Assembly (NCBI GenBank): GCA_018302135.1
Contig: JAGWAE010000006.1
Location: forward strand, 1 to 44,743
Length of the DNA stretch: 44,743 nt
Direction: 5' to 3'
DNA from: Candidatus Woesearchaeota archaeon
GTDB taxonomy: Archaea > Nanobdellota > Nanobdellia > SCGC-AAA011-G17 > PNOQ01
The position numbers were made by a program, and so were the translations under genes. The notes beneath the pieces are model-generated. The model was not told where the DNA came from and made no database searches. It saw only the letters and a program-made list of their open reading frames with translations. This document shows, piece after piece, positions 2,798 to 39,017 of the stretch (positions are counted from its first letter, which is position 1; each line of letters begins with the position of its first letter).

Positions 2798-2798
2798 A

Positions 2799-8169: not shown

Positions 8170-8177
8170 TTTATAAA
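8170..8177 (+). promoter_or_regulatory. TATA box for PAN
   Basis: TTTATAAA ends 22 nt before the ATG at 8200. Confidence 0.5.
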
Positions 8178-8199: not shown

Positions 8200-9324
8200 A
8201 TGAGTTTTTTAGGGAAAAAAGTAGGTGATAATAATAATTATTCTATTATTGAAGAAAATAAGAAATTGAAAGAAACTTTATTTTCTTTAAAACAGGAATT
8301 AAATTCTTTGAAAGAACCTCCTTTAGTTGTTTGTGATGTTCTTTATGTGTTTGATAAAAAAGCTATAGTTAGATTGGCCAATGGTGGAAACTTCTTTGTT
8401 AATATATCTTCCAATTTCATAGATAAAATAAAAGTTGGAGATAGAGTTTTATCAGAACAAAAATCATTGACAATAATAGATAGGTTAGATAAATCAAAGA
8501 ATTTTGATGTAGAAAATTTTGTAATAATTGAAAAACCAAAAATTACTTGGGCAGAGATAGGTGGTTTAAAAAAACAAATAAGGGAAATTTATGAAGTTGT
8601 TGAATTGCCTTTGAAGAATCCTAAATTATTTGAAGAAGTTGGAATTGAACCTCCTAGAGGAATATTACTTCATGGTCCAAGTGGAACAGGTAAAACTATT
8701 CTTGCTAAAGCAGTTGCTTCTAGTACTAATTCTACTTTTATTCAAATAGTAGGTAGTGAGTTAGTACAAAAATTTATTGGGGAGGGTGCCAAGCTAGTCA
8801 AGGATATTTTTAAACTTGCTAGAGAAAAAGCCCCTAGTATAATCTTCATAGATGAAATAGATTCTATTGCTTCGGAGAGAATTGATATTGGTACTAGTGG
8901 AGAGCGAGAAGTACAGAGAACATTTATGCAATTGTTAAATGAAATTGATGGTTTTAAACCTTTAGATAATGTGAAAATAATAGGGGCAACTAATAGAATA
9001 GATATACTCGATAAAGCAATATTAAGACCAGGTAGATTAGATAGATTAATACACGTTCCTTTACCTAATGAAGAAGGAAGAAAGGAGATATTCAAATTGC
9101 ATACAAAGAATATGAAGTTAGAAAATGTAGACTTTAGGGAAGTAGTTGCGATTACTGATTCTTTTTCTGGAGCAGAAATAAAGTCTGTGTGTACTGAAGC
9201 AGGCTATTTTGCAATAAGGGATAAAAGAGTTAATGTTAGAAAAGAAGATTTTGTAACTGCTGTCAGTAAGGTAAAACAGGGAGACTTGGAAGAAGGAGAC
9301 GTTCCGGTTACAATGTTTGGTTAA
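8200..9324 (+). CDS. pan: Proteasome-activating nucleotidase (PAN, AAA+ Rpt-like ATPase)
   Basis: Short N-terminal coiled coil, an OB region, then an AAA+ module with Walker A GPSGTGKT, Walker B IIFIDEID, the second region of homology and GATNRIDILDKAILRPGRLDR. Confidence 0.9.
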   Translation: MSFLGKKVGDNNNYSIIEENKKLKETLFSLKQELNSLKEPPLVVCDVLYVFDKKAIVRLANGGNFFVNISSNFIDKIKVGDRVLSEQKSLTIIDRLDKSKNFDVENFVIIEKPKITWAEIGGLKKQIREIYEVVELPLKNPKLFEEVGIEPPRGILLHGPSGTGKTILAKAVASSTNSTFIQIVGSELVQKFIGEGAKLVKDIFKLAREKAPSIIFIDEIDSIASERIDIGTSGEREVQRTFMQLLNEIDGFKPLDNVKIIGATNRIDILDKAILRPGRLDRLIHVPLPNEEGRKEIFKLHTKNMKLENVDFREVVAITDSFSGAEIKSVCTEAGYFAIRDKRVNVRKEDFVTAVSKVKQGDLEEGDVPVTMFG

Positions 9325-17344: not shown

Positions 17345-19636
17345 ATGGCAATTTCTCAAAAAAAGTTGAATCCTGGAGAGTATGAAATAATTCAAGAAGG
17401 GGAAGACCATATTATGAGAATAAATTTTTTTGGTTTGGACTATCCTCCTTCTTTAGAAGATAACAATATTTGTATGGCTAGTGTTATTAATGATTTAATT
17501 GAAAGCCCAAATGTTAGCAGAATAATTTTTTCTTCAGATAGAAATTATCAGTACAACAATGAACAGACTCAAATGTTAAGGGAATTTGGAAATATTTATG
17601 TTTATTTGACCAAACAGAGAAAAATTTTAAGTTTGAACTCTTTGGGTTTTGATCCTAATTATCCTACTTTAATATCAGACAAAATTGCAAATATACAATA
17701 TATAGTCACCAATTTATTAAAATCTGATCCTGTTGGTGCTTATGTTGATGTGAAACGACAGATAAGGGAACAAAAAATAAAATTGAATAAACCTATGTCT
17801 GTAAATGAGTTAAGACAAGAAAATTTGTATCTTAATGTTTTGGAAGAATTATTTGGTTTATTAGATAAAACAAAATTAATTGAATTATTAAAAAATGATT
17901 TAGATGGTCACCAAATTGGGAATAGAAGAATTTATTCTAATTTTTTCAGACCCGCTATAACTCCTAATTTTGTACATACGAGATTAATGGCTGAACCTCC
18001 AATGGATTCAGATGAAATTGATAGTTATATTGTTGATGAAAACATTAACATTATGATTTTTAATATACCTGAAGATATAAAAAGTAGATATCATGTTATT
18101 CCTCCAGAATTTAATTTAAGTGAAGATAAACTTGAATTATTAGACCTAGCAAGATCTGTTTTATCTGAGCATGAACCGGTTGCAGAAGAATTTACAAATC
18201 CAGAAAGAATGAGAGAAACTTTTTTTAATATAGGGAAAGATTTAATTAGTGAGCTAGCTGATCAGAAAAATATTAGAATTAGTTTTGAAGAAATTGAAAT
18301 TTTAGCAGGTATATTAGTTAGATATACTGTTGGTTTTGGTTTGCTGGAAGTTCTATTAAAAGATGAGAAAATACAAGATTTGGTTATTAATGGTCCAATT
18401 GGTGAATCTCCTATCTACATAGTTCATCAAGATTACGGTGAATGTAGCACAAATATTATACCTAGTAGAGAAGATGGTGAAAGTTGGGCAACAAAGTTTA
18501 GAATGATTTCTGGAAGACCTTTGGATGAGGCTAATCCTGTTTTAGATACAGAACTTTTAATTCCTGGTGCGAGAGCGAGAGTTGCAATAATAACAAATCC
18601 TTTGAATCCTTATGGGCTCGGTTATGCATTGAGAAGGCATAGGGATAATCCTTGGACATTGCCTTTATTTATGAATAATAAAATGATAAACTCTTTAGGA
18701 GCGGCTTTATTGAGTTTTATAATTGATGGATCTAGAACTTTATTAATTGCTGGTACGAGAAGTAGTGGTAAAACTTCCTTACTTGGTTCTTTGATGGTTG
18801 AAATAATGAGAAAATATAGAGTTATTACGGTTGAAGATACGTTAGAATTACCAGTTAGACAATTAAGAAGATTGGGATATAATATTCAGCCCATGAAAGT
18901 TAGATCCTCTTTATCTGAAGGTGGTGCCGAGCTTGCCGCAGAAGAAGGAATTAGGGCTAGCTTAAGAATGGGAGATAGTAGTTTAATTGTTGGAGAGGTT
19001 AGAAGTAGAGAAGCATTAGCATTATATGAAGCTATGAGAATTGGTGCATTGGCCAATGTGGTCGCTGGAACAATACATGGTGGAAGTCCTTATTCTGTTT
19101 TTGATAGAGTTGTAAATGATTTGGGTGTGCCAAGAACTAGTTTTAAAGCTACAGACATAATTGTAGTTGTTAATCCAATAAAAACTCCAGATGGTTTAAA
19201 AAAAGTTAGAAGGGTATTGAGTATTACAGAAGTTAGAAAAGAATGGGAAAATGATCCTTTAAGAGAAGGAGGTTTTGTCGATTTAATGCTTTATAATCCT
19301 GAAACTGATCAATTAGAACCTACTGATAATTTGATGAATGGTGATTCTGAAATAATAAAACAAATAGCCGCAAATGTTAAAGAATGGGCAGGAAATTGGG
19401 ATGCGGTTTGGGAAAATATATTATTGAGGAAAGAATTAAAAGAAGAACTTCTAACGATGTATAATGAAACTAAAAATAAAGATATTTTAGAAGCACAGTT
19501 TGTGGTTATGGCCAATGATGCTTTCCATAAAATATCTGATGAAGTTTTAACTAAATATGGTATGTTAGATAATAAAAAAATATCTTTTAGATGGAAGGAA
19601 TGGTTGAAAAAAGAAATGAAAAAGAGGAATATATAG
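17345..19636 (+). CDS. Type II/IV secretion-family ATPase (FlaI/PilB/VirB11-like) with long N-terminal extension
   Basis: Walker A GTRSSGKTS begins at residue 470. Also present are the Asp box ITVEDTLEL, Walker B SLIVGEVRSREA and the His box AGTIHG. A Shine-Dalgarno-like GGTGAT precedes the ATG. 763 aa. Confidence 0.85.
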   Translation: MAISQKKLNPGEYEIIQEGEDHIMRINFFGLDYPPSLEDNNICMASVINDLIESPNVSRIIFSSDRNYQYNNEQTQMLREFGNIYVYLTKQRKILSLNSLGFDPNYPTLISDKIANIQYIVTNLLKSDPVGAYVDVKRQIREQKIKLNKPMSVNELRQENLYLNVLEELFGLLDKTKLIELLKNDLDGHQIGNRRIYSNFFRPAITPNFVHTRLMAEPPMDSDEIDSYIVDENINIMIFNIPEDIKSRYHVIPPEFNLSEDKLELLDLARSVLSEHEPVAEEFTNPERMRETFFNIGKDLISELADQKNIRISFEEIEILAGILVRYTVGFGLLEVLLKDEKIQDLVINGPIGESPIYIVHQDYGECSTNIIPSREDGESWATKFRMISGRPLDEANPVLDTELLIPGARARVAIITNPLNPYGLGYALRRHRDNPWTLPLFMNNKMINSLGAALLSFIIDGSRTLLIAGTRSSGKTSLLGSLMVEIMRKYRVITVEDTLELPVRQLRRLGYNIQPMKVRSSLSEGGAELAAEEGIRASLRMGDSSLIVGEVRSREALALYEAMRIGALANVVAGTIHGGSPYSVFDRVVNDLGVPRTSFKATDIIVVVNPIKTPDGLKKVRRVLSITEVRKEWENDPLREGGFVDLMLYNPETDQLEPTDNLMNGDSEIIKQIAANVKEWAGNWDAVWENILLRKELKEELLTMYNETKNKDILEAQFVVMANDAFHKISDEVLTKYGMLDNKKISFRWKEWLKKEMKKRNI

Positions 19637-21787
19637 ATGCCTATTTCAAATAAAGAGATAAGTGAAATATTAGATAAATATAAAAAAAAGTTGGATAAGA
19701 ATTTGACTGCGAAGGATATGCAAGAATATAGGCCTAGCTCAAATTTTTCTAGAGAATACTCTAAGTTTAGAGATGAAGCATTAGGTAAGAATCTTTCACT
19801 TTATGAAAAACTTTGTAAATTCTCCGATAGTGTTGTTAAAATAAGCCCTTCTAAAAAAGATTTTGATAAAATCCAAGAAGCAATAAGTGTTGCCCATTTG
19901 AATATAACTCCAAATATGGCTGCAAGTTTTTCTTTGCTCGTCGTAACATTTTTATCTTTAATAGGATTGGTTGTAGGGTTAGTTTCTTATTTCTTATTTG
20001 GTAATCTTGGTGTTCTTGCTATAGGCTTATTATTAATACTTGTTTCTGTATTAATTTTAAATCCATTAACAAGATTGCCCGTGTCTATTTCAAATAGATG
20101 GAGAATGTCTGCATCTAATCAAATGGTTTTATGTATTTTATATATAGTAATTTATATGAGACATACATCTAATTTAGAAAATGCAATAAAGTTTAGTGCA
20201 GATCATATAGATAATCCTCTTTCTTTAGATTTAAGAAAAGTTTTTTGGGATGTTGAAACAGGAAAATATTCTACTGTAAAAGAATCTTTGGATAATTATT
20301 TGGTTAGATGGAGAAAAACTAATTTAGAATTTGTAAATTCTTTTCAATTGATTCAAAGTAGTTTATATGAACCAAGCGAAAACAGAAGAATAGAACTTCT
20401 TGATAAATCTTTAAATGTAATTTTAGATGGAACTTATGAAAATATGTTGCATTATGCACATAACTTGAAGAATCCAATAACTATGCTACATATGTTAGGA
20501 GTTATTTTACCTATTTTAGGATTGGTTATATTCCCTTTAATCGGTGCATTTATGAGTGGATCTATTAAATGGTATCATCTATTTATTTTGTATAATATTT
20601 TGTTGCCTTTGATAGTTTACAATGTTGGAATAAATATATTGAATAAAAGACCTGGTAGTTATGGTGAGATAAATATTCCACTTATGCCTAAGAAAGGAGT
20701 AGCTATTATGTCTATAATTGTTGTTTTAATATTTACTATAATTGGTTTTAGTCCTTTTATAATTCATGCTGCGGATTCAACTTTCGATTTTAGTTTTTGG
20801 CAGGCCGAGGATGGGACTGGTGGCGAGAAATTTTTAGATTTTTATTGTAATGAAGGCAAATGTGTTGGTCCATTTGGATTGGGAGCTTTATTGATAAGTT
20901 TACTAATTCCTTTAGGTTTAGCTTTAGGAATTGGTTGGTATTATGTGAGTAAAACTAGTTTAGCTATGAAAATAAGAAATGAAACTAAAAGATTAGAAAA
21001 AGAATTTTCAACTGCATTATTTCAATTGGGAACTAGAATTGGAGACGGAATACCTGCCGAACTAGCTTTTAAAGATGTTGCAAAAACAATGTCAGGAACT
21101 CCTTCTGGAAAGTTTTTTGAAAAAGTTCATATGAATCTAACTAAAAATGGTTTGAGTTTGAGAGATGCAATTTTTGATCCTGATTTGGGAGCTATTCTGG
21201 AATTTCCAAGTCCTTTAGTTCAAAGTTCTATGGAAGTTTTAATTGAAAGTTCAAGGAAAGGCCCTTTAGTTGTTTCTCAATCATTAACAAGCATTTCTAT
21301 TTATGTGAATAATGTTCATAGTGTAAATGAAAGATTAAAAGATTTATTATCTGAAATAATTTCAAGTATGCAAAGTCAAATAAGTTTTATGGCTCCAGTT
21401 ATATCTGGGATTGTTGTTGGTATTGCTAGCATGGTTGTTGGTGTAATTTCTAAATTAACTGTTATGCTTGAACAAGTCGGTAGCGATCAAACATTAGCTA
21501 CTGGTACAAATTTGGCCAGCCTTGCAAATCTATTTGATAAATCAAGTACTGTTCCTGGATATTTTTTCCAAGTTGTTGTTGGAATCTATGTTGTTCAGAT
21601 AATTTACATATTAAGTATACTAGCAAGTGCAATTGAATATGGGCCTGATAAATTAAATGAAAAATATAGTGCAGGAAAGAATGTTTTAAAAGGAACATTG
21701 ATATATTTAATTGTGTCATTGATAGTAATATTACTATTTAATAAAATTGCATCATCTGTTTTAGCTACAAGTATGGGTGCTGTTTGA
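19637..21787 (+). CDS. Pilus/archaellum-type assembly platform membrane protein (FlaJ/TadC/PilC, T2SSF-like)
   Basis: Starts 1 nt after the ATPase stop. Polytopic, 716 aa, with two cytoplasmic T2SSF-like helical segments (LSLDLRKVFWDVETGKYSTVKESL and EKEFSTALFQLGTRIGDGIPAELAFKDVA), each followed by TM clusters. Confidence 0.7.
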   Translation: MPISNKEISEILDKYKKKLDKNLTAKDMQEYRPSSNFSREYSKFRDEALGKNLSLYEKLCKFSDSVVKISPSKKDFDKIQEAISVAHLNITPNMAASFSLLVVTFLSLIGLVVGLVSYFLFGNLGVLAIGLLLILVSVLILNPLTRLPVSISNRWRMSASNQMVLCILYIVIYMRHTSNLENAIKFSADHIDNPLSLDLRKVFWDVETGKYSTVKESLDNYLVRWRKTNLEFVNSFQLIQSSLYEPSENRRIELLDKSLNVILDGTYENMLHYAHNLKNPITMLHMLGVILPILGLVIFPLIGAFMSGSIKWYHLFILYNILLPLIVYNVGINILNKRPGSYGEINIPLMPKKGVAIMSIIVVLIFTIIGFSPFIIHAADSTFDFSFWQAEDGTGGEKFLDFYCNEGKCVGPFGLGALLISLLIPLGLALGIGWYYVSKTSLAMKIRNETKRLEKEFSTALFQLGTRIGDGIPAELAFKDVAKTMSGTPSGKFFEKVHMNLTKNGLSLRDAIFDPDLGAILEFPSPLVQSSMEVLIESSRKGPLVVSQSLTSISIYVNNVHSVNERLKDLLSEIISSMQSQISFMAPVISGIVVGIASMVVGVISKLTVMLEQVGSDQTLATGTNLASLANLFDKSSTVPGYFFQVVVGIYVVQIIYILSILASAIEYGPDKLNEKYSAGKNVLKGTLIYLIVSLIVILLFNKIASSVLATSMGAV

Positions 21788-21792
21788 AAAAG

Positions 21793-21800
21793 TTTATAAA
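21793..21800 (+). promoter_or_regulatory. Internal TATA box in front of the pilin-gene train
   Basis: TTTATAAA ends 21 nt before the ATG at 21822, matching the leaderless spacing seen elsewhere. Confidence 0.45.
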
Positions 21801-21821
21801 AAATAAAAGAGTGAAAAGAAT

Positions 21822-21941
21822 ATGAACAAAAAAGGAGAGATTAAAGAATATTTAGAAACTATATTTATTATTCTTTTTATTATACTTGCTTTGTATTTAT
21901 TATATTCATTTGTTTCTGGGAGAGTTGTAAAAATTGTTTAA
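21822..21941 (+). CDS. Mini pilin-like protein (39 aa; class III leader plus one hydrophobic helix)
   Basis: Reads MNKKGEIKEYLETIFIILFIILALYLLYSFVSGRVVKIV. Not in the ORF track because it is under 60 aa. It has the same MNKKG leader as the downstream genes and overlaps the next gene by 8 nt. Confidence 0.5.
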   Translation: MNKKGEIKEYLETIFIILFIILALYLLYSFVSGRVVKIV

Positions 21942-22737
21942 TGGAAAAAAAGGTTTGGAATCTAGCGTTATGGTTGCAATTGTTATAATTTTGTCTGCCA
22001 TAATATTACTCATAGGAACTAAATCCATTGCTGATACTGGAGAGGATGCTGTAGATAGAGAATCTTGTAAAGCTAGCGTTTTGTTTAAGGAACGAAGTAA
22101 ACTTCTTGGAAAACCTTTAATTGATGATGTAAGTTGTGAAACTAATTTAATTGATATTAACTCTAAAGATGAAATTGAAATAAAGAAAACTATTGCTAAT
22201 GAAATGTATGATTGTTGGTATCAATTTGGTCAGGGTGAGAGAGACTTCTTGGATACATGGGATTTTGGTAAAGGGGATAATTATTGCTTTGTTTGTTCTA
22301 GGATTGATTTTAGTGAGGAAACTCAGAAAGAAATTAGTCAGGTAACTGGATTGTTTGATTATTTGAGTAATGAACCTTTGCCTTTACATAACCAAGAGAG
22401 CTTTTTTGTTAATATGTACGGAGAAGATGCTAATCAACTTGATTCTCAAAGTATTTTGGATGTTTATTCTACTGATAAACCTCTTTATATTGTCTTTTTT
22501 GCAGATAAGAGAACAGTTAATGATCTTGGTAGTTCTTGGGTAACCGCTGGAGCGAGTGGATTATGTGCAGCAGGAATTGTTCTTAGCCCTATAACTTTTG
22601 GTACTTCTGCTGCTGTTGGATGTTTGACTGCTGGAATTGTTACTGGAACGGTTTACACTACTACTCATAAAAATACATTTGTCAATGGTTTATATGTTGG
22701 ACAAGACAGTCAAATAATGGAGATATGTCAACAATGA
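21934..22737 (+). CDS. Class III signal peptide (pilin-like) protein, 267 aa, Cys-rich, with C-terminal Gly/Ala-rich hydrophobic segment
   Basis: The N-terminus reads (TTG)FNGKKGLESSVMVAIVIILSAIILLIG. A stop lies 2 codons upstream, which forces a TTG start. The body contains multiple Cys, and the C-terminus reads AGASGLCAAGIVLSPITFGTSAAVGCLTAGIVTG. Confidence 0.65.
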   Translation: MFNGKKGLESSVMVAIVIILSAIILLIGTKSIADTGEDAVDRESCKASVLFKERSKLLGKPLIDDVSCETNLIDINSKDEIEIKKTIANEMYDCWYQFGQGERDFLDTWDFGKGDNYCFVCSRIDFSEETQKEISQVTGLFDYLSNEPLPLHNQESFFVNMYGEDANQLDSQSILDVYSTDKPLYIVFFADKRTVNDLGSSWVTAGASGLCAAGIVLSPITFGTSAAVGCLTAGIVTGTVYTTTHKNTFVNGLYVGQDSQIMEICQQ

Positions 22738-22886
22738 AAAAAGGAGAATTGGCTTGGGATAAATTAGGAAAATGGATTTTACTTTTAATCTTCTTAATTT
22801 TAATTTTAATAGTTGTCTTTAAACAAAAAGATCAAATAATGAATGCTATTAAAAGTTTGGGAATTGCTTTGAGGTTTGGCGGATGA
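22734..22886 (+). CDS. Mini pilin-like protein (50 aa)
   Basis: Reads MKKGELAWDKLGKWILLLIFLILILIVVFKQKDQIMNAIKSLGIALRFGG. Not in the ORF track. It has ATGA overlaps with both neighbouring genes. Confidence 0.5.
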   Translation: MKKGELAWDKLGKWILLLIFLILILIVVFKQKDQIMNAIKSLGIALRFGG

Positions 22887-23485
22887 AAAAAGGAAATTTA
22901 ACTGGAACACAAATAATTGTTGCAACTATTACTATTATTATTGTCTTTGTTATTTCTGGATTTGGTTCTGAAGCTTTTGCTAAAATTGGGGATAGTTTGG
23001 GGTTCGGTGTAGATTTAACTCCAGAAGAATTAGTAGCTCAAGAACAAGCTAAATCTCAAGTTGAAGATAATTTAATCAGAGTTATTTATAGTTGTCAAGA
23101 TAAAATGAAAATTGGTTGTTTTTGTACTAATAATTCATTAAAATTGCCAAATGATTATGTTTTAAACTTTGAAGTAAAAGATGGAACAAAGTTTAGTTTA
23201 TTTAATAATAAAGGTGGAAAAGTAGAAGATTACAATTTAAACAATGTACAATTATGTATCCCAGATGAAAGTTGGAATTTGATTAATTTAAATGTACAAG
23301 CTAAAGATGCTGGCGCGAGTTTGCTTTTTGGAAGTACAAATTATTTAGTTTACAAGAGTTTAGATGGAAAAGATGTAAAAAAAGCAATTGATCCGGCTTA
23401 TTTTATTTTTAAACCTAGTTCAGGAACTATTTGTATATTAGATGAAAATAGTGCTAAAGTAAGAGAAAAAGATATTTGTAGTTAA
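22883..23485 (+). CDS. Class III signal peptide (pilin-like) protein, 200 aa
   Basis: The N-terminus MKKGNLTGTQIIVATITIIIVFVISG is followed by a soluble Cys-containing domain. Confidence 0.7.
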   Translation: MKKGNLTGTQIIVATITIIIVFVISGFGSEAFAKIGDSLGFGVDLTPEELVAQEQAKSQVEDNLIRVIYSCQDKMKIGCFCTNNSLKLPNDYVLNFEVKDGTKFSLFNNKGGKVEDYNLNNVQLCIPDESWNLINLNVQAKDAGASLLFGSTNYLVYKSLDGKDVKKAIDPAYFIFKPSSGTICILDENSAKVREKDICS

Positions 23486-23533
23486 CCAAAAAATTTAAAT
23501 AAACATTTTTATAGGAAAAATGGAGGTGATTGA

Positions 23534-23878
23534 ATGATAAACTCAAAAAAAGGTCAAAGTCTTTCTGTTAATACTATAATTATTATGATTTTAGCAATAT
23601 TTGTTTTAATAATCTTAGTTGTTGCTTTTACCGGGGGAACTGGCGATTTTATGAATAATATTGCTCAATTGTGGAGTGGTTCAGGAATAGACTCTCAGAA
23701 GGCTGCTGTAACTTGTAATGGAATGTGTAATACTTATAATACTGCGCAGTCTGCAAAGGTGAAAACTGATTTTTGTACCAAAGTCTTTAAAATAGATTAT
23801 GATGGTGATAAAAAAGTTGATGAAGAGTTAACCTGTCCTGAAATGTCATCAGTTTCTTGCCCAACAATACAATGTTAA
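23534..23878 (+). CDS. Pilin-like protein, 114 aa (candidate structural pilin), Cys-rich head
   Basis: Shine-Dalgarno GGAGGTGA lies upstream. The leader MINSKKG is followed by QSLSVNTIIIMILAIFVLIILVVAF. The C-terminal 55 aa contain 7 Cys. Confidence 0.75.
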   Translation: MINSKKGQSLSVNTIIIMILAIFVLIILVVAFTGGTGDFMNNIAQLWSGSGIDSQKAAVTCNGMCNTYNTAQSAKVKTDFCTKVFKIDYDGDKKVDEELTCPEMSSVSCPTIQC

Positions 23879-24081
23879 ACTCTTTTTTTTCTTATTTTAA
23901 AAATAAGAAAGGCCAAGGATTGTCTGTTGAAACCATAATTGTTTTAGTTCTTTTATTAATTGTTCTTGTTGTAGTGGTTTTAATATTTACAGGTCAATCT
24001 AAAATGATTTTCGATAATGTTAGAGAATTTTTTGGTTTGATTAATGAAACTCCTAAGAATTTAACTGGTACGATAAAATGA
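23872..24081 (+). CDS. Short pilin-like protein, 69 aa (candidate structural pilin)
   Basis: The leader ...FKNKKG is followed by QGLSVETIIVLVLLLIVLVVVVLIF, close to the mature N-terminus of the previous gene. The probable start is the ATG at 23872, which overlaps the previous stop. Confidence 0.7.
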   Translation: MLNSFFSYFKNKKGQGLSVETIIVLVLLLIVLVVVVLIFTGQSKMIFDNVREFFGLINETPKNLTGTIK

Positions 24082-24578
24082 ATAAGAAAGCAGTATTGGG
24101 AATGAATTTGAAGACTATAATAGGTCTGATTATGGGTGTCATAATGTTATTGTTTGTTTTTAATGTGGGAGATAGTATTATTGGTATATTGTTTCCAGAT
24201 ATTTCAGAATTAACAGAAAAATCTTTAGAAGGATTAGATAATTTAATACAAACAACAAGTTCTGGTCAAAAGGAAGATTATTTGTTTTTTATGTCAAATG
24301 GATTTCAGTTAGTTGCCTTCGATAAAGGTACAAATGAAAAATCTGGAGATTATGAAAGGCCTGCATCATGTTTTCAGAAATCTTGTTTAGTCGTTTGTAA
24401 AAAAAGTAGTAAACCTAATGCATGTGAAAACTCTGATTTAATAAAAACATATGATTTTGATAAAATAATTCCTACAAGTGTTGAAAGTGGAATTATAACT
24501 ATGGTTCAAAAAGAATATGTTAATCTCGAAGTTGAAGTGGGTAATAATTCTATTAAGATAACAGAGAAGGATAAATGA
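24078..24578 (+). CDS. Pilin-like / pilus-locus membrane-anchored protein, 166 aa
   Basis: The N-terminus is MNKKAVLGMNLKTIIGLIMGVIMLLFVF, i.e. an MNKK leader with a displaced Gly. The body is Cys-containing (CFQKSCLVVCKK..NAC). ATGA overlap with the previous gene. Confidence 0.6.
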   Translation: MNKKAVLGMNLKTIIGLIMGVIMLLFVFNVGDSIIGILFPDISELTEKSLEGLDNLIQTTSSGQKEDYLFFMSNGFQLVAFDKGTNEKSGDYERPASCFQKSCLVVCKKSSKPNACENSDLIKTYDFDKIIPTSVESGIITMVQKEYVNLEVEVGNNSIKITEKDK

Positions 24579-24606
24579 TTTAAATAGTAAATGATTAAAA
24601 TGAACA

Positions 24607-25017
24607 ATGGCTGCAGTAGAAGAGAGAACTTATTTTTGGACGGGTTATCTTGTAATAGCAATTGTTGTTTTTATACCTTTGTTAATGTTTATGAATAAAT
24701 CTGCAGATGCAGATTCTTTTAAAGAAAAAATTATTTCTAATGAATTAGCTTTAATATCTGATTTTGTTATGGGTAGCAATGGTGAAATATTAGTTGAATA
24801 TAATATTAATCAAGAAAAATCTTATAAAATTGGTTTTAATGAAAAATGTTTATTTGTTGTTTCTTTAACTGGTACTAGTTTGGAAAGTGGAAGTAAAACT
24901 TATTGTGCTGATAATTTATTATTGAATAAAAGATATCTTGATGCTGGAGAATATGTAAGAATAATATTAGATAAAAAAGAAGATAGGTTAGTTATTACAG
25001 GTGGTATAAGTGAATAA
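24607..25017 (+). CDS. Pilus-locus membrane-anchored protein without KKG leader, 136 aa
   Basis: It has an N-terminal TM helix (YLVIAIVVFIPLLMF) but no K-K-G motif. It is embedded in the pilin train. Confidence 0.55.
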   Translation: MAAVEERTYFWTGYLVIAIVVFIPLLMFMNKSADADSFKEKIISNELALISDFVMGSNGEILVEYNINQEKSYKIGFNEKCLFVVSLTGTSLESGSKTYCADNLLLNKRYLDAGEYVRIILDKKEDRLVITGGISE

Positions 25018-25489
25018 AAAAGGTCAAGAATTTGAGCAGGAATTGTTGAAAATGATACCTTACTCTTTTATAGTAATATTAGTTGCATTAACTTATGTCT
25101 TTGCATTTTCTAATATATTAAATGTTAATGTTCAAAGAGCAGAAATTGATGAACATGTTGCAGTTTATAGATTGTTCAATAGTAAAAGTTGTTTAGGTTA
25201 TAGTAATGGTGTAATAAATTTAGATAAATTTTATAATGAAAATCTTGAAAAATGTTTTGATCTAACATCTCAACAAAGAACAGGAGTTGAATTAAAATTA
25301 TACAATCTAAATGGAACCGAGGTTAGAACTGCAGAAATAAATAGTTTATTAGTTTCTCAGAAAGTTACGTGTAAATTAAAAAGTTCTGATGTTGATTGTT
25401 ATTCAACAAGAAAATATGTTTTGTTTGAAGAAGATAATGAGATGAAACAAGGAATGATAGATATTTTGGTGGTGACTTATGCTGAATAA
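25010..25489 (+). CDS. Class III signal peptide (pilin-like) protein, 159 aa
   Basis: GTG start. The leader (M)NKKG is followed by QEFEQELLKMIPYSFIVILVALTYVFAF. Overlaps the previous gene by 8 nt. Confidence 0.6.
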   Translation: MNKKGQEFEQELLKMIPYSFIVILVALTYVFAFSNILNVNVQRAEIDEHVAVYRLFNSKSCLGYSNGVINLDKFYNENLEKCFDLTSQQRTGVELKLYNLNGTEVRTAEINSLLVSQKVTCKLKSSDVDCYSTRKYVLFEEDNEMKQGMIDILVVTYAE

Positions 25490-25907
25490 AAAAGGAGACG
25501 AAATAATAGCTAGTTTATTTAGTATGATATTTATTGTTATAATCTTAGCTCTTGTTGTTATATTTTCTATCTTAGGTGGAAAAGATAGCGAGTTAGAAAT
25601 TGGAGAGTTTTCTTATGGCAATGAAAATATTTTTGTTATTGAATCTTATTTGGAAACTAATTCTGATATTGTAAACTTGTATTTGATTGATGAAGAAAAG
25701 AAAGATGAACTAGAATTGCAAACTAAAAATATTTTTGATAAGGTTTATGGTAAATGTTATGGTTTTGAGATTTCTAATTTAAAAATTAATGAATTAACTA
25801 ATAAGAAAACCTGTGTTGATTATCCTATAGATAACAAATTATGTTTGGATATATCTGAATATGATAAAAAGATGGAAGATAATGAGGTTGCAAAATGCTT
25901 CGAATGA
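25479..25907 (+). CDS. Class III signal peptide (pilin-like) protein, 142 aa
   Basis: The leader MLNKKG is followed by DEIIASLFSMIFIVIILALVVIF. Overlaps the previous gene by 11 nt. Confidence 0.65.
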   Translation: MLNKKGDEIIASLFSMIFIVIILALVVIFSILGGKDSELEIGEFSYGNENIFVIESYLETNSDIVNLYLIDEEKKDELELQTKNIFDKVYGKCYGFEISNLKINELTNKKTCVDYPIDNKLCLDISEYDKKMEDNEVAKCFE

Positions 25908-26650
25908 ATAAGAAAGGAATATTACCAGTTATAACTTTAGTATTTACTCTTTTGTGTTTAAGTGCTTTTTTATTTTTTAGCCCGGAAGCTATGGATAATC
26001 AGAAAGATGTAGTTGGTGCAACAACTATAGAATTAATGAATTTAGATTTTAAATCTAAAGCAGATGCAATTTATGATGAACAAATTATAAAACAAAAGTT
26101 TAGTGAGAATTTTGTTAAGCTTGCTGAAAATGGTGGATATTATGAACAAAGTAAAACTGATGATGGATATGTTTATTGGAAAAGAGATAAAACAAATTGT
26201 TTTCCGAATGTTGAATTATTAAAAACTAATCTAATTAAATATATTAATTCTAGTGAAAAAGCTAGTTATGATTTTGATTTAATTTTCGATAAAACTAAAA
26301 TTGTTATTAATTTGAAAAATAATAAAGAATACATTGTTGAAAAAGATAATTATAAAATCAATATGAAACCTAAAAATGGTTTTGCAATAAGCTATAATTA
26401 TAATATTGATTCTTTGATGAATAACGTTTGGAAGGTTGAAAGAATCGTTAATTTATGTGAAGATGATAGGTCTTGTTGGGTTGATAATGCAGATTTCGTG
26501 TGGAAAAATGAGGACAAATTATATAAAGTAGAGCTAACTTCTGATAAAATAGTAGATGCCTTTGGGGAAAAAGAGGTGATCCTGAAGGCAGCTATTGATT
26601 TCGAAGAGTTGAATCCTTTAGAAGGAGAGGTGTTTGAATGCTTGGTTTAA
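25904..26650 (+). CDS. Class III signal peptide (pilin-like) protein, about 248 aa
   Basis: The leader MNKKG is followed by ILPVITLVFTLLCLSAFLFF. The ATG at 25904 gives an ATGA overlap with the previous stop and is preferred over the track start at 25895. Confidence 0.65.
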   Translation: MNKKGILPVITLVFTLLCLSAFLFFSPEAMDNQKDVVGATTIELMNLDFKSKADAIYDEQIIKQKFSENFVKLAENGGYYEQSKTDDGYVYWKRDKTNCFPNVELLKTNLIKYINSSEKASYDFDLIFDKTKIVINLKNNKEYIVEKDNYKINMKPKNGFAISYNYNIDSLMNNVWKVERIVNLCEDDRSCWVDNADFVWKNEDKLYKVELTSDKIVDAFGEKEVILKAAIDFEELNPLEGEVFECLV

Positions 26651-27636
26651 GTTATGAAGATATAATTGAAAAAATTGTTAAAGAGACTGCTATGTCCCGA
26701 GCAGTTTTAGAAAAAAAAATTGAGGATAAAATAAAACAGTTATCTGATTTAATTAGTAGGGAAGGTGCAGCACAGATAATCGCTAATCAACTTGGCGTTA
26801 AATTAGTTGAAAGTTTTGGAAGTAAAAGTTTAAAATTGAAAGAAATACCTAAAGGAACTAGTTCTGTTAATTTTTTAGCAAGAGTTATTCAAATTTATGG
26901 TGTAAGAGAGTTTAACAAAGAAGGTAGAATTGGGAAGGTTGCTAATTTGTTAATTGGAGATGAAACTGGAAGTTTGAGAATGGTAATATGGGATGATAAA
27001 TTAATCAAAGAGCTTGAAAATGGAGCTATTAATGAAGGAGATGTGATAAAAGTTAGTAATGCATATTCAAGAGTTAATAATAATTTTAATGAGTTACATT
27101 TGGGTTCTAGAGCAGTAATAAATATTAATCCAGATGGAGAAAAAATTCCAGAAATTCAAGGCAGAGTTAGTGTTTTAGAAAAGTTTGAATCTGTAAAAAT
27201 CTCAGAATTGAAAGAAGGAATGCAAGTTGAATTAAATGGAACTGTAGTTCAATTGTTTGAACCAAGACATTATTTGGCTTGTCCACATTGCAATAAAAAA
27301 GTATTTCAACAAGGATTAGAATATAAATGCAATACTCATGATGTGGTTGAACCTAAAAAATCTCCAATTGTAAATATGTTTTTTGATGATGGTTCTGGAA
27401 ATGTTAGAGTTGTTTTATTTGCTAATCAAGCTATGCAGTTGTTGAATAAAACTTCTGAGGAAATAGTAAATACTAATAATGAAAAAATTGAATTATTTAA
27501 AAAGGATGTTTTAGGAAAACAAATGTTAATTAGTGGGAGAGTTATAAGAAATCAAATGATGGATAGGTTAGAAATAATATCTAGTAATGTAAAAGAAGCA
27601 AACCCTGTAGAGCTAATTCAAATGTATGAAAAATGA
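26638..27636 (+). CDS. Replication protein A (RPA/RFA-type ssDNA-binding protein; OB folds plus zinc ribbon)
   Basis: Helical N-terminus (AMSRAVLEKKIEDKIKQLSDLISREGAAQIIANQLGV), an OB fold (VNFLARVIQIYGVREF..GKVANLLIGDETGSLRMVIWDD) and a Zn motif (CPHCNKKV..YKCNTH) inside a second OB fold. Confidence 0.8.
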   Translation: MLGLSYEDIIEKIVKETAMSRAVLEKKIEDKIKQLSDLISREGAAQIIANQLGVKLVESFGSKSLKLKEIPKGTSSVNFLARVIQIYGVREFNKEGRIGKVANLLIGDETGSLRMVIWDDKLIKELENGAINEGDVIKVSNAYSRVNNNFNELHLGSRAVININPDGEKIPEIQGRVSVLEKFESVKISELKEGMQVELNGTVVQLFEPRHYLACPHCNKKVFQQGLEYKCNTHDVVEPKKSPIVNMFFDDGSGNVRVVLFANQAMQLLNKTSEEIVNTNNEKIELFKKDVLGKQMLISGRVIRNQMMDRLEIISSNVKEANPVELIQMYEK

Positions 27637-29402: not shown

Positions 29403-29521
29403 TTTATGCCTCCATGTGATTGATTTGAGTTTAAATTACTGGTTTTAAATGTTTCGGAATAAATTATTAATAATTTAAGTGGATTCTTTTAAATAGAAAT
29501 TAATTTATTTAAACGCTTGCC

Positions 29522-29535
29522 AGCTTGCCAACCAC
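29522..29535 (+). promoter_or_regulatory. GC-rich 14-nt motif AGCTTGCCAACCAC, copy 2 (upstream of the radA operon)
   Basis: Identical to the motif at 13377..13390 read on the minus strand. It lies exactly 10 nt upstream of TTTATAAA and is preceded by a partial tandem copy (GCTTGCC at 29515..29521). Confidence 0.55.
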
Positions 29536-29545
29536 CAGGAAATTA

Positions 29546-29553
29546 TTTATAAA
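29546..29553 (+). promoter_or_regulatory. TATA box for the 83-aa gene/radA operon
   Basis: TTTATAAA lies 63 nt upstream of the ATG at 29617. Here a leader with a strong Shine-Dalgarno (GGGGAGG) is present. Confidence 0.5.
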
Positions 29554-29616
29554 TGACATTAAACTAACTAGTTTTAACTCCATGAAATAAAAACCGAAAA
29601 GGGGAGGCGATATGGA

Positions 29617-29868
29617 ATGAATAAACCTATACAAAAATATAAATCTGGTTCTATAGAATGTGCAATTTGGGCAAATGAAAGAGAACTTAATGGGAATGTA
29701 GTTGAATTTAAGACTGTGAGCTTGAGAAAGGCTTGGAAAGATGACAAAGTTTGGAGAGATTCTGTGATTAATTTTAGGAGAGGTGATCTACCTCGAGCAA
29801 TTTTAGTTTTAGAAAAAGCTCAAGAAAATTTGTTGTTAGATAATAATGAGGTGGAAGAAAATGAATAA
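29617..29868 (+). CDS. Small conserved-looking protein coupled to radA, possibly PC4/YdbC-like ssDNA-binding fold
   Basis: 83 aa. The pattern GSIECAIWANE...G.VVEFKTVSLRKAWKDDKVWRDSVINFRRGDLPRAILVLEKA resembles PC4/YdbC-like beta-sheet-plus-helix proteins, ending in an acidic tail. It overlaps the radA start by 8 nt. Confidence 0.35.
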   Translation: MNKPIQKYKSGSIECAIWANERELNGNVVEFKTVSLRKAWKDDKVWRDSVINFRRGDLPRAILVLEKAQENLLLDNNEVEENE

Positions 29869-30817
29869 GGAAGAATTTACGTTAAAAGATTTACCAGGTG
29901 TAGGACCGGCAACAGTTGAGAAATTACAAGAAGCAGGTTATGATAATATATTAGCTATAGCAGTTGCTAGTATTAGTGAGCTAACTAATGCAGTTGGTGT
30001 TGGTGAAGGTGTTGCAAGAAAAATGATTCAAACTGCAAGATCTAAGTTAGATATGGGCTTTGAAACTGGAATTGACTTATTAGAAAAGAGAAAAAATGTT
30101 TTCAAAATAACTAGTGGAAGTGAAGCATTTGATACTTTGATAGGTGGTGGTTTTGAAAGTGGATGCATTACTGAATGTTTTGGTGCTTATGGTAGTTCAA
30201 AAACTCAGATAGCTAATTCTTTAGCAGTTCGTGTACAATTGCCTAAAGATAAAGGTGGTGCTGATGGTATGGCCGTTTTTATTGATACTGAAGGAACATT
30301 TAGACCTGAGAGAATAAAACAGATTGCAGAAGCCGTTGGAATTGATGCTGAGGAAGCATTAAAAAATATTAGAATTGCTAGAGCTTTTAATTCAGATCAT
30401 CAAATGATTTTAGTTGAAAAAATTGAAGAATTAATAACTAAAGAAAACTTACCAATTAAGCTTATTATTGTTGATTCTCTGACATCTCATTTTAGGGCGG
30501 AATTTGCTGGAAGAGGCTCTTTGGCTGAAAGACAACAGAAATTGAATAAACATATGCATGATTTAATGAAACTGTCTGCTAATTATAATGTTGCAATTTA
30601 TGTAACTAATCAAGTAATGGCTAGACCAGATACTTTCTTTGGTGATCCAAATGAGGCTATTGGAGGTAATATAGTAGGGCATAATTCAACGTTTAGACTT
30701 TACTTAAGGAGGGGCAAAAAAGGTTCAAGAGTGGCTAAACTTGTAGATAGTCCGAATTTACCTGAAGCGGAAGCTATATTCTATATTACTGAAAGTGGTG
30801 TAAGAGATGAGGAATAA
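29861..30817 (+). CDS. radA: DNA repair and recombination protein RadA (Rad51/RecA family)
   Basis: N-terminal HhH (LKDLPGVGPATVEKLQEAGY), a Walker A-like GAYGSSKTQ, Walker B LIIVDSLTSHFRAEF, and L1/L2 regions. The probable start is the ATG at 29861, preceded by GAGGTGG. Confidence 0.92.
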   Translation: MNKEEFTLKDLPGVGPATVEKLQEAGYDNILAIAVASISELTNAVGVGEGVARKMIQTARSKLDMGFETGIDLLEKRKNVFKITSGSEAFDTLIGGGFESGCITECFGAYGSSKTQIANSLAVRVQLPKDKGGADGMAVFIDTEGTFRPERIKQIAEAVGIDAEEALKNIRIARAFNSDHQMILVEKIEELITKENLPIKLIIVDSLTSHFRAEFAGRGSLAERQQKLNKHMHDLMKLSANYNVAIYVTNQVMARPDTFFGDPNEAIGGNIVGHNSTFRLYLRRGKKGSRVAKLVDSPNLPEAEAIFYITESGVRDEE

Positions 30818-31057: not shown

Positions 31058-31339
31058 ATGGCAAGAGCTGTAGCAACATTAAAAATAATGCCTTCTTCTC
31101 CCGATGTTGATTTGAATAAGTTAGAAGCAAAGGCTAAAGAAATAATATTTAGATTTCTTGGTGAAAAATCTGAAACCAAAATAAATATTGAGCCTGTTGC
31201 TTTTGGATTAAAAGCATTAATTATATTTTTTGTTATGGAAGAAAGTTTAGGAAGTCCTGATCCAATAGCTGAAAAGGTTGCTAATTTAAAAGAAGTTAAT
31301 TCTGCTGAAATAACTGATGTAAGAAGAGCTATTGGTTAA
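31058..31339 (+). CDS. ef1b: Translation elongation factor aEF-1 beta
   Basis: MARAVATLKIMPSSPDVDL..IEPVAFGLKALIIFFVMEE..VNSAEITDVRRAIG is the typical 90-aa aEF-1beta pattern. The ATG at 31058 is preferred over the track start at 31031. Confidence 0.85.
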   Translation: MARAVATLKIMPSSPDVDLNKLEAKAKEIIFRFLGEKSETKINIEPVAFGLKALIIFFVMEESLGSPDPIAEKVANLKEVNSAEITDVRRAIG

Positions 31340-32202
31340 AAAATAAAGTTTCCTAATAAAATACTAATTATTGTCCCTATCAAAAATGCAGGAATAAAAG
31401 CGATTCCATCTTTTACTAAAACTTTTTTCTTGTGTTTTTGTATTACTTCTATTTGTTTTTTTGTAACACCTAAAGATTTTTTTGAATAAACTAATTTATT
31501 ATTTATTATAATATCTTCTGCTATCCAGTCTCCATCTACTAATTTTTTTGTGTCAATCAATTTATACATTGAAATATTCTCTATAGACTTAACAGATAAG
31601 TAAAGATATAAGAAAGTTAATGGAACTATTGCCAACGCAAAAAATGCAAGTTGCAATGAATAATTTTTTATTATTAAAGCTAAAATTATAAATAAGAAAG
31701 ATAATATTAAGATAATTAATCTTATACTTTTGATATTCTTTTCTTTTGTTAATTCTCTAAAATGTTTTGTAAATTTTTTAATATTTTTTAAAATTAAAGT
31801 AAGGCTAACTAAAATACCATAAACTCCACCAGCAATTAATATGTTCATAAATAATATTATTGGAAAGGGTAAACTTAAGTTTGGATTAAATACGTTAATT
31901 AATTGTGCAGGATATTCTGGGAGAATTGCACCTAAGCCCATTAATATTTTTGAATCTCCGCCACCCCATTGTTTTGAAAGATACATTAATTCTGAAATTG
32001 CGAAAAATATTCCTAAAACTGTTAAACTTTTCAATATTGGTGAAAATGAATTTTCTTGTATTGATTTTAAAGAATAAATAGACAATCCTAGTAATATTAA
32101 ACTGTAACTTAACCAGTCTGGGACTTCCTTTGTTTTTATATCGCAGATAGCTGCGAATGTTAACCAGACTAAAACTATTGCCAATATTATCCAATCAAAC
32201 AT
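31336..32202 (-). CDS. Prepilin/preflagellin peptidase (A24 family; PibD/FlaK/EppA-like)
   Basis: Polytopic, 288 aa. The first catalytic Asp context is AAICDIKTKEVPDW and the second is the GxGD-type WGGGDSKILMGLG. A soluble insert precedes the last TM helix. Confidence 0.8.
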   Translation of the reverse strand: MFDWIILAIVLVWLTFAAICDIKTKEVPDWLSYSLILLGLSIYSLKSIQENSFSPILKSLTVLGIFFAISELMYLSKQWGGGDSKILMGLGAILPEYPAQLINVFNPNLSLPFPIILFMNILIAGGVYGILVSLTLILKNIKKFTKHFRELTKEKNIKSIRLIILILSFLFIILALIIKNYSLQLAFFALAIVPLTFLYLYLSVKSIENISMYKLIDTKKLVDGDWIAEDIIINNKLVYSKKSLGVTKKQIEVIQKHKKKVLVKDGIAFIPAFLIGTIISILLGNFIF

Positions 32203-32223: not shown

Positions 32224-32231
32224 TTTATAAA
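32224..32231 (+). promoter_or_regulatory. TATA box for the 136-aa HExxH gene
   Basis: TTTATAAA ends 22 nt before the ATG at 32254. Confidence 0.45.
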
Positions 32232-32253: not shown

Positions 32254-32664
32254 ATGTTTGATGAAAAGGATGTTTTGAAAATATACAACACTGCTTATTC
32301 TGATTTTTCTAAAAAAAATAAAATAACTTGTGAATTAAAATTAGTTAAACAAGAAGAATTCAATCAAATTGCTAGAAAATCTAAATTAATCCAAGATTCT
32401 ATTAAGCAATCTATTGTCCCTTTTGCGGGTGCTTTAACGGATCATCTTTTAGGTAAGAGTGTGATTTATGCAAGTGCAGATATTTTGAATCAGTTATCAG
32501 ATGACAAGAATTTTGTTAAAGCTATTTTCATGCATGAGTTTTATCATATACTTCTCAAACAAAAAGTAAAAAAAGATAATGTAAAAGAAGAGTTGAAATC
32601 GGAAGAAAGGGTAAATAAGCAACTAGCTAAGGAATTTCCCAAACTAGCTAAGTACCTAGATTAA
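32254..32664 (+). CDS. Small soluble protein with HExxH motif (putative minimal metalloprotease-like)
   Basis: 136 aa. The only recognisable feature is FMHEFYHILL near the C-terminal third. Confidence 0.4.
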   Translation: MFDEKDVLKIYNTAYSDFSKKNKITCELKLVKQEEFNQIARKSKLIQDSIKQSIVPFAGALTDHLLGKSVIYASADILNQLSDDKNFVKAIFMHEFYHILLKQKVKKDNVKEELKSEERVNKQLAKEFPKLAKYLD

Positions 32665-38285: not shown

Positions 38286-39017
38286 ATGGATAAAGAACAA
38301 GTTTTAAGGAATTTTGGATTGACTGAAAGAGAAATAAAAGTGTTTTTAGCTAGCATGACTTTAGGACAAGCTACAGTTAACGAGATAGCTAAAAAATCTA
38401 ATACTTTTAGAACATACTCCTACGACATCTTAAAATCTTTAATGGAAAAAGGATTAGTTAGATATTTTATTAAATCTGGAGTAAAATATTTTGAAACTAT
38501 TGAACCTGAAAAATTGGTTTATATCTTGCAAGAAAGAGAAGATCAAGTTAAAACAATTTTACCTGAGTTAAAATCATTAAGAGCAAGAACTACGGAAAAA
38601 CCAAAAGTAGAGTTCTATGAGGGAAAAGAAGGAATAAAAACTATACATGAGGACATAATTAAAACAAAACCAAAAGAAGTTTTAGTTTATGGAAATACAG
38701 AGAAACATTATGAAGTTATGCAATGGTATTTTCCAAGGTACATAAAAGAGAGAATAAAAAATAATATTCGAACAAGAGTTATTACAGAAAAAACTAAATT
38801 AACTAAAGAACAAATTAAAGATAAAGAAAACGTAGAATTAAGACAAACAAAATATTTTCCTATAGGTTTTTCTTTTCCAACACTAAAATATATTTATGGA
38901 AATAAATTAGCAATGATTTCTTTAGGAGATAATATTGTTGGGTTAATATTAGAAAATAAAGATATAACTAACACGGAAAAAATGGTGTTTGAACTGTTAT
39001 GGAAAACAATTAAATAA
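38286..39017 (+). CDS. TrmB-family transcriptional regulator (N-terminal wHTH plus C-terminal sensor-like domain)
   Basis: GLTEREIKVFLASMTLGQATVNEIAKKSNTFRTYSYDILKSLMEKGLV is a TrmB/MarR-type winged HTH. 243 aa. A CTTAAATA box ends 21 nt upstream of the ATG. Confidence 0.75.
   Translation: MDKEQVLRNFGLTEREIKVFLASMTLGQATVNEIAKKSNTFRTYSYDILKSLMEKGLVRYFIKSGVKYFETIEPEKLVYILQEREDQVKTILPELKSLRARTTEKPKVEFYEGKEGIKTIHEDIIKTKPKEVLVYGNTEKHYEVMQWYFPRYIKERIKNNIRTRVITEKTKLTKEQIKDKENVELRQTKYFPIGFSFPTLKYIYGNKLAMISLGDNIVGLILENKDITNTEKMVFELLWKTIK

Follow-up and report, generated by a model that had tools for sequence, protein, structure and literature searches.

A conserved TTGYCA-repeat element at the promoters of the radA operon, hef and nuclease-like genes of Woesearchaeota-like archaea, a candidate regulatory site

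The repeat element in front of the radA operon and hef

The 44.7-kb stretch of DNA analyzed here (the window; 71% A+T) is part of a 268,613-bp metagenomic contig of a Candidatus Woesearchaeota archaeon, an uncultivated member of DPANN. It encodes RadA, preceded by a small protein of 83 amino acids (aa), on one strand and the helicase-nuclease Hef on the other, and the promoters of both units carry the short sequence element with which this work is concerned. A first-pass annotation had pointed to an identical GC-rich 14-mer, AGCTTGCCAACCAC, which lies at an identical distance of 10 nt from an identical TATA box, TTTATAAA, in front of the radA operon and hef, and had proposed it as operator of a DNA-repair regulon. 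The coordinates proved exact on both strands, and the two loci are organized as follows (BRE, TFB-recognition element; ORF, open reading frame):

29522-29535, plus strand: AGCTTGCCAACCAC of the radA operon, exact match, with TTTATAAA at 29546-29553
29515-29522, plus strand: distal unit GCTTGCCA, in perfect tandem with the proximal copy
29523-29530, plus strand: proximal unit GCTTGCCA with core TTGCCA at 29525-29530, 15 nt before the TATA box
29531-29545, plus strand: 15-nt spacer, ACCAC (AC at 29534-29535) followed by purine-rich, BRE-like GGAAATTA
29546-29553, plus strand: TATA box TTTATAAA of the radA operon
29554-29616, plus strand: 63-nt leader with Shine-Dalgarno sequence GGGGAGG at 29601-29607
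29617-29868, plus strand: 83-aa ORF, first gene of the operon, its end overlapping the radA start
29861-30817, plus strand: radA, 318 aa (Pfam Rad51, 1.6e-92, and HHH_5; start as in the public gene call)
13390-13377, minus strand: AGCTTGCCAACCAC of hef, exact match, with TTTATAAA at 13366-13359
13397-13390, minus strand: degenerate distal unit CTTTGTGA, overlapping the TGA stop codon (13392-13390) of the upstream 268-aa gene
13389-13382, minus strand: proximal unit GCTTGCCA, 15 nt before the TATA box
13381-13367, minus strand: 15-nt spacer ACCACAGCAAAATGA with conserved AC and an A-rich, BRE-like 3' half
13366-13359, minus strand: TATA box TTTATAAA of hef
13337-11130, minus strand: hef, 735 aa, superfamily 2 helicase (DEAD, Helicase_C) with ERCC4 nuclease and helix-hairpin-helix (HhH) domains

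The combination of AGCTTGCCAACCAC, 10 nt and TTTATAAA occurs exactly twice in the window when both strands are considered. The first-pass annotation had seen no further copies, and indeed no third match to AGCTTGCCAACCAC is present in the window at fewer than two mismatches. When up to three mismatches are allowed the number of matches rises to four as compared to 1.42 expected; the additional ones, with two or three mismatches (2679-2692 and 8782-8795, the weak match at the latter spanning 8776-8802), are intragenic and score at chance level. Apart from AGCTTGCCAACCAC, the window does not contain a repeated 14-mer with eight or more G/C, and no such repeat arose in 30 shuffles, in line with the earlier claim that the coincidence is not due to chance. 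A weight matrix built from 32 sites, with the two window sites among the training set, assigns 52.4 and 43.6 bits to these two sites and 5.4 bits to the next-best position of the window, while the maxima in shuffled windows have a mean of 4.2 and do not exceed 12.7 bits. Outside of a 32-nt core the flanks of the two copies are identical at 30/60 and 19/60 positions. This is near random, and the two copies are therefore not the result of a segmental duplication.

As judged from the pattern of conservation described below, the functional unit is not the 14-mer itself but an 8-nt sequence, nnTTGYCA, which usually occurs in tandem. The sites originally proposed are thus real, while the conserved word is TTGYCA with an 8-nt period plus AC, and the 14-mer corresponds to the proximal unit plus ACCAC. 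The full element reads (nnTTGYCA)1-2 + NNNAC + N10 + TTTATAAA, such that the proximal unit ends 15 nt before the TATA box and the conserved AC occupies spacer positions 4-5. The A-rich 3' half of the spacer is consistent with a BRE. A palindromic reading, TTGCC-N7-GGCAA, was also considered; the inverted partner GGCAA is present in a minority of sites only and the direct repeat is preferred.

Ordinary promoters in the window possess a TTTAAAT-type box, in most genes about 22-25 nt before the ATG, which indicates that the mRNAs of the window are mostly leaderless. The same probably applies to hef, because its ATG follows the TATA box after 21 nt in the window and after 19-24 nt in relatives. 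The TTTATAAA box, which is a palindrome, is also found at 8170-8177 and 32224-32231, without TTGYCA repeats, in the short intergenic regions of two divergent gene pairs (7761-8117, minus, and 8200-9324, plus; 31336-32202, minus, and 32254-32664, plus). In these two regions it may serve as a shared or bidirectional TATA box.

Conservation at orthologous promoters

Promoters of radA operons from relatives were collected via the 83-aa protein and those of hef via an alignment of Hef, and both sets were aligned on the TATA box. The homologues of these and other proteins are annotated as Candidatus Woesearchaeota, Nanoarchaeota or simply "archaeon". All six radA-operon promoters, that of the window included, exhibit two 8-nt units in tandem, the second of which ends 15 nt upstream of TTTATAAA (loci of relatives are given as L numbers):

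Window and L016: GCTTGCCA-GCTTGCCA
L012: GCTTGCCA-GCTTGTCA
L014: TTTTGTCA-TATTGTCA
L221: GGTTGACA-TCTTGACA
L220, the most distant (46% protein identity): CTTCTCAC-ATTTCTCA

The partial tandem repeat GCTTGCC, which the first-pass annotation had noticed next to the radA copy, has thus turned out to be part of a conserved feature. Ten hef promoters, with Hef identities down to about 56-61%, retain the proximal unit as [GC]TTG[CT]CA at 15 nt, the spacing being 16 nt in two of them (L018 and L020). Most of them contain the proximal unit only, a tandem being present in one of the ten; the distal position falls into coding sequence. The element is absent from the hef promoters of more distant relatives. 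In one locus (L044, Hef 52% identical) three tandem copies of CTAGCCA with a 7-nt period are located 19 nt before TTTAAATG and some 50-100 nt upstream of hef; these may represent a diverged version of the element.

Among the 16 promoters ascertained by homology, AC is present at spacer positions 4-5 in 12 (counted by eye) and the TATA box reads TTTATAAA in 15, and purines predominate in the 3' half of the spacer, just as expected for a BRE. The hexamer drifts (TTGCCA, TTGTCA, TTGACA, TTCTCA), the last two variants stemming from the most distant relatives, while the period, the spacing and the TATA box do not change. Such drift within a fixed geometry is the signature of a protein-binding site that co-evolves with its reader. 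The flanks diverge while the element is kept, so that the footprinting suggested by the first-pass annotation revealed a genuine phylogenetic footprint at the radA-operon and hef promoters of relatives. A relaxed pattern, TTGYCA-N14-16-TTTAWAW, found 20 matches in 937 kb of related loci and 14 of these are hef or radA-operon promoters.

These data bear on the simplest alternative, namely that a GC-rich word recurred by chance near two TATA-like strings. It could draw on the presence of just two copies in the window and on the 11 occurrences of TTTATAAA therein. In addition to the outcome of the 30 shuffles, two findings speak against it: the element is conserved at over 15 independent orthologous promoters, and it is in strong excess within a single archaeal clade. 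Because of the conservation data we consider this explanation refuted, its remaining probability being negligible.

The fixed geometry could also mean that the repeats together with TTTATAAA form an extended promoter that is read by a specialized TFB or TBP paralogue without any separate regulator. This is improbable: the repeats are located 15-31 bp upstream of the TATA box, a distance to be compared with the known TFB-DNA contacts, which reach only about 7-9 bp upstream, and no such paralogue was seen within the window. Its strengths are the absolute rigidity of the spacing to the TATA box, the difference between this TATA variant and the housekeeping TTTAAAT type of the same genome, and regulation directed by paralogues of general transcription factors as described for haloarchaea (PMC2396416).

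Conservation in the radA operon extends into the leader. In the aligned sequences (window, L012, L014, L016, L125, L138, L151 and L221) AACTCC close to the predicted transcription start site is followed by [AGT]TGAAATAA[AG]A..CGAA[AT]AG and then by the Shine-Dalgarno sequence. When single sequences are folded, a CUCC-type segment at the 5' end pairs with the Shine-Dalgarno/start region in some relatives; the overall picture is mixed, with z-scores of -4.1 for L016, about -2.4 for L138 and L151 and a weak -1.5 for the window, and RNAalifold did not find a consensus structure in the leader alignment. The leader may be a translational control element.

The gene for the 83-aa protein is positioned directly 5' of radA, and overlaps it, in every locus examined. 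Its product lacks sequence matches in Pfam, NCBIfam and PDB. The AF2 model comprises four antiparallel strands and a C-terminal helix (pLDDT confidence score of 89), and Foldseek retrieved weak matches only (COMM domain, E 0.02; Sub1/PC4, E 0.4). The protein may be an accessory of RadA or bind single-stranded DNA, a PC4-like mode of binding being a guess. At first, the family appeared confined to the clade that bears the motif (26 clusters). This was ruled out by an exhaustive profile search at the level of hidden Markov models, which yielded 1411 representative clusters, and an argument for the 83-aa protein as the regulator that was built on co-distribution had to be dropped for this reason.

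Genes behind the element within and beyond the window

The element does not accompany genes of DNA metabolism indiscriminately. A weight-matrix scan did not detect it in front of the cdc6, polD, RPA-like, UDG, GINS and PAN genes of the window, the following of which are listed together with other genes that lack it:

Orc1/Cdc6
both PolD subunits
OB-fold protein
PAN
RPA-like protein
UDG
GINS51
TrmB-like regulator

Since these replication and base-excision genes are devoid of it, the element marks recombination genes. Side observations were made on two parts of the window. At its start, orc1/cdc6 (106-1320) is followed by the genes for the small and large subunits of PolD (1325-6314), and a replication origin may be situated just upstream of the window start. 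At 17345-26650 a long cluster of genes on one strand begins with those for an ATPase of the T2SSE/archaellum-pilus type (763 aa) and a 716-aa protein, continues with about ten small proteins without family matches and leads into the RPA-like gene (26638-27636); the locus probably specifies a type IV pilus-like or surface structure. Neither Rfam nor tRNA searches returned any matches in the window.

For a view beyond the window, one genome per species (GTDB collection) was scanned with the pattern CTTGYCA-N3-AC-N10-TTTATAAA, which gave at least 119 stretches, and the surroundings of the matches were viewed as blocks of 8-20 kb. All figures that follow refer to the matches listed. Twenty of these reside in ten metagenome-assembled genomes (MAGs) of Woesearchaeota/Nanoarchaeota, with up to five per MAG, and 99 are single matches scattered over unrelated bacteria plus one Ferroglobus. 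At positions that had not been forced by the pattern the two groups differ markedly: 13/20 archaeal versus 0/99 other matches possess a distal unit at precisely the 8-nt offset with no more than one mismatch, and in 15/20 versus 10/99 the TATA box is followed by an ATG at a distance of 19-26 nt. All archaeal copies are in promoter register, which together with the near-random flanks in the window speaks against a dispersed genomic repeat, an alternative that the first-pass annotation had raised itself. The sites were retrieved with a pattern that forced part of the motif, and the class proportions among the matches listed are not unbiased; the genes behind the 20 archaeal sites are:

Hjc, a Holliday-junction resolvase (Pfam, 5e-29)
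hef
three radA operons
151-aa winged-helix protein
680-aa protein with a helix-turn-helix (HTH) domain and an Hjc-like part
RhuM protein
nine LAGLIDADG_3 proteins, each scoring above the Pfam cut-off and containing both acidic LAGLIDADG motifs
three unclear cases

A further copy exists in the species of the window itself, outside the window. It consists of AAACGCTTGCCAGCTTGCCAACCACC, 9 nt and TATATAAA in the same 15-nt register and shares 27 identical nt with the radA copy. It is located on a contig of the same population, which encodes protein P0154; the longest contig of this protein is that of the window itself. Counting this copy, three units carry the element in this species, namely the radA operon, hef and the following operon:

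L217, 7245-7452, minus strand: 38-aa ORF and 34-aa ORF
L217, 6625-7212, minus strand: 195-aa metallophosphoesterase

The same operon with the same tandem site is found in the MAG CAYFOF (L104, 3563-4392, plus strand). In both species it encodes a protein of 33-38 aa, an acidic one of 34-35 aa with a ...GF motif and a calcineurin-like metallophosphoesterase of 194 or 195 aa behind a TATATAAA box. The core of the proposed DNA-repair regulon is supported, with the correction that it is specific for recombination/nuclease genes: hjc, nuclease-like genes and the metallophosphoesterase operon join radA and hef in related genomes, while the RPA-like, UDG, cdc6, polD and GINS genes of the window stay outside.

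Beyond what the first-pass annotation had led us to expect, about half of the additional promoters listed belong to free-standing genes of LAGLIDADG endonuclease-like proteins. Several of these adjoin tRNA genes (Met, Thr, Arg, Asn, Ser; L139, L166, L174, L185, L202, L204), which suggests homing-endonuclease-like insertion beside conserved targets. Free-standing homing-endonuclease genes are often neighbors of tRNA genes. The LAGLIDADG proteins are mutually divergent, and the site is therefore maintained by selection at each promoter rather than having been copied recently. The arrangement suggests that homing-endonuclease-like genes have adopted a host recombination promoter.

The reverse is also conceivable, in that the element travels with free-standing LAGLIDADG genes, as a promoter cassette or target site, and came to lie at radA, hef and hjc secondarily. 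This selfish-DNA explanation appears highly improbable to us. Nine of the 20 archaeal matches listed precede LAGLIDADG genes, several of them next to tRNA genes, and nuclease-like genes have been inserted in radA operons (L151, L138, L011). Against it, the element occupies orthologous, syntenic radA and hef promoters down to identities of 46% (83-aa protein) and about 56% (Hef), no sequence similarity exists beyond the promoter, and even a traveling cassette would still imply a shared regulator. The insertions are of two kinds:

L151, 4611-5666, minus strand: zinc-ribbon nuclease-like gene with the endonuclease-like C-terminus 'AFEYQGRQHF'; same arrangement in L138
L011, 1273-1846: 329-aa gene directly after radA with a 'faint' precomputed LAGLIDADG_3 match

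The zinc-ribbon genes (351 and 363 aa) sit between the leader and the 83-aa gene. An interpretation of the L138 and L151 sites as those of an independent gene that shares the radA leader was rejected, as these loci are radA operons with an inserted first gene. For the L011 gene, the available N-terminal 191 aa did not match any Pfam family. A strict scan of viral contigs for the tandem plus TATA box returned a single match, antisense inside a phage terminase gene, which we take as chance.

A putative recombination regulon and its relation to known systems

The architecture of the element, its conservation and its specificity for a class of genes are observed directly. On this basis we propose that it is the BRE-adjacent upstream activator site of a putative regulator of a recombination/nuclease regulon, an explanation in which we place about even confidence. 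It is favored because a position next to the BRE and a rigid spacing match characterized archaeal activator sites; the binding of a protein, activation rather than repression and a physiological signal are what we infer from it. According to this proposal, a lineage-specific cis-regulatory site of one or two direct TTGYCA repeats with an 8-bp period, followed by AC, would abut the BRE and TATA box, and promoters with a TTTATAAA box would constitute a distinct class. A putative sequence-specific DNA-binding protein would occupy the repeats, the proximal one being obligatory and the distal one adding cooperativity, and from this fixed position could contact TFB/TBP and stimulate formation of the pre-initiation complex. 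Counted from the transcription start predicted by the leaderless ATG distance, the TATA box would extend from about -30 to -23, the proximal hexamer from about -51 to -46 and the distal hexamer from about -59 to -54. The outcome would be co-expression of the 83-aa protein/RadA operon, Hef, Hjc and other nucleases in this Woesearchaeota-like DPANN clade, and free-standing LAGLIDADG endonuclease-like genes equipped with the element would be co-expressed with the recombination machinery.

Several points weigh against the proposed activator site. A consensus-like TATA box and a purine-rich BRE are already present; such features are less typical of promoters that depend on an activator and agree with repression too. 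With a period of 8 bp the two hexamers face different sides of the helix, an unusual arrangement for simple tandem dimers. The 151-aa winged-helix gene carries the element in CAYFOF (L104) and lacks it in the species of the window, such that membership in the regulon is partly plastic. The inclusion of the window sites in the matrix and the partly forced scan pattern, both mentioned above, belong here too.

The same element could instead serve a repressor as operator. Bound there, the repressor would keep TFB from the BRE or lock the promoter until it is released upon DNA damage or replication stress, following a LexA-like logic. We regard this as rather unlikely. Basal activity may be high given the strong-looking TTTATAAA box and the purine-rich BRE, the conserved alignment columns continue without a gap from the repeats into the BRE, and regulons of bacterial recombinases are controlled by repressors. 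On the other hand, characterized archaeal repressors mostly bind over the TATA box and BRE or the start site, and Ptr2 and TrmBL1/Tgr act through activating sites upstream of the BRE. The repeats do not overlap the TATA box itself, and sites upstream of the BRE are typically activating as exemplified by GvpE (PMC2241852) and EarA (PMC5512572).

Whichever way the putative regulator acts, the proteins considered as binders of the element did not gain support:

L217, 10001-10456, and minus strand of L104, 445-897: 151-aa winged-helix and coiled-coil protein
Window, 38286-39017: TrmB-like protein
L217, 8100-9143: second Orc1/Cdc6 paralogue, located about 0.6 kb away from the third site and considered by analogy with Orc1-2
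HTH-LAGLIDADG proteins
83-aa protein

The 151-aa protein is predicted to form a winged helix and a long C-terminal helix (AF2, pLDDT 81; weak Foldseek matches to Fur, PadR, Sso10a and MarR). Its role as an autoregulated regulator is unsupported as its own promoter is without a site in the window's species. Across Woesearchaeota/Nanoarchaeota the protein is conserved to an extreme degree (4899 clusters, 60-93% identity), and it may act as a chromatin-like protein or global regulator.

The unusual feature of the proposed regulon is that RadA, Hef and Hjc appear to be co-wired with many LAGLIDADG endonuclease-like genes. Tentatively, and with more doubt than conviction, we suggest that one putative regulator couples the recombination core (83-aa protein plus RadA, Hef, Hjc) with free-standing, probably active LAGLIDADG endonucleases and other nucleases. 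If this were true, proteins that make double-strand breaks and the machinery for repair by gene conversion would be expressed as one program. It could have originated from selfish homing endonucleases that captured a host recombination promoter or, alternatively, constitute a break-and-repair system that has been domesticated, for instance to diversify the genome of an episymbiont or to process the DNA it acquires. The element suggests a wiring of homing-endonuclease-like genes to the recombination program of the host, and it predicts genes co-regulated with RadA, i.e. its 83-aa partner, the two small ORFs plus metallophosphoesterase and the winged-helix protein. It also provides a sequence-defined handle and bait for finding the regulator, and the drift of the hexamer (TTGCCA, TTGACA, TTCTCA) opens a search by co-variation.

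Literature searches did not retrieve any description of the motif or of a recombination regulon in DPANN. To our knowledge, a transcriptional regulon has not been described for DPANN archaea, and outside of the Sulfolobales with their Orc1-2 system we know of no defined promoter element for archaeal recombination/repair genes. In its function the element may resemble an archaeal upstream activating sequence (UAS) adjacent to the BRE, the closest parallel being the UAS of GvpE, which comprises two 8-nt portions adjoining the BRE and does not tolerate any change of its distance to the BRE without loss of activation (PMC2241852). Common to both are two 8-nt units, a proximal unit that is essential in the case of GvpE and invariant here, and a fixed distance, here 15 nt to the TATA box. 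However, the sequences are unrelated, the GvpE portions are separated within a 20-nt UAS whereas the units described here are contiguous, and haloarchaeal gas-vesicle promoters contrast with recombination targets in DPANN. Comparable in position is EarA of Methanococcus maripaludis, which activates the fla operon from a position upstream of the BRE and, as proposed, helps to recruit TFB (PMC5512572). EarA serves a single operon with a weak BRE, unlike the many promoters with consensus-like BRE and TATA box considered here. Its sites are said to be repeated short hexamers.

With regard to its targets, the putative regulon may be viewed as the DPANN counterpart of the Orc1-2/ANTTTC regulon of Sulfolobales and, more loosely, of the SOS box, neither motif nor geometry being shared. 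The Sulfolobales element is a DNA-damage-response promoter element, a hexanucleotide in the 20-bp consensus AATAGTTTCRGWDTACTCWS located 23-55 bp upstream of the ATG, and governs ups, ced and tfb3 (PMC6061795). It is the only well-documented archaeal case in which a promoter motif defines a DNA-damage/recombination regulon through an activator, and the species of the window likewise possesses at least two Orc1/Cdc6 paralogues (window, 106-1320; L217, 8100-9143). In contrast, the targets here are radA, hef, hjc and endonucleases, and the conserved columns (TTGYCA, TTGYCA, AC) do not match any part of AATAGTTTCRGWDTACTCWS including ANTTTC. The bacterial SOS response under LexA likewise has one promoter motif that links the recombinase gene to further repair genes. 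Its operator, the SOS box, is palindromic, overlaps elements of bacterial promoters and is the target of a repressor that cleaves itself, and a LexA-like protein is not among the window ORFs scanned. The element described here is, in contrast, a direct repeat with an 8-nt period upstream of an archaeal BRE and TATA box.

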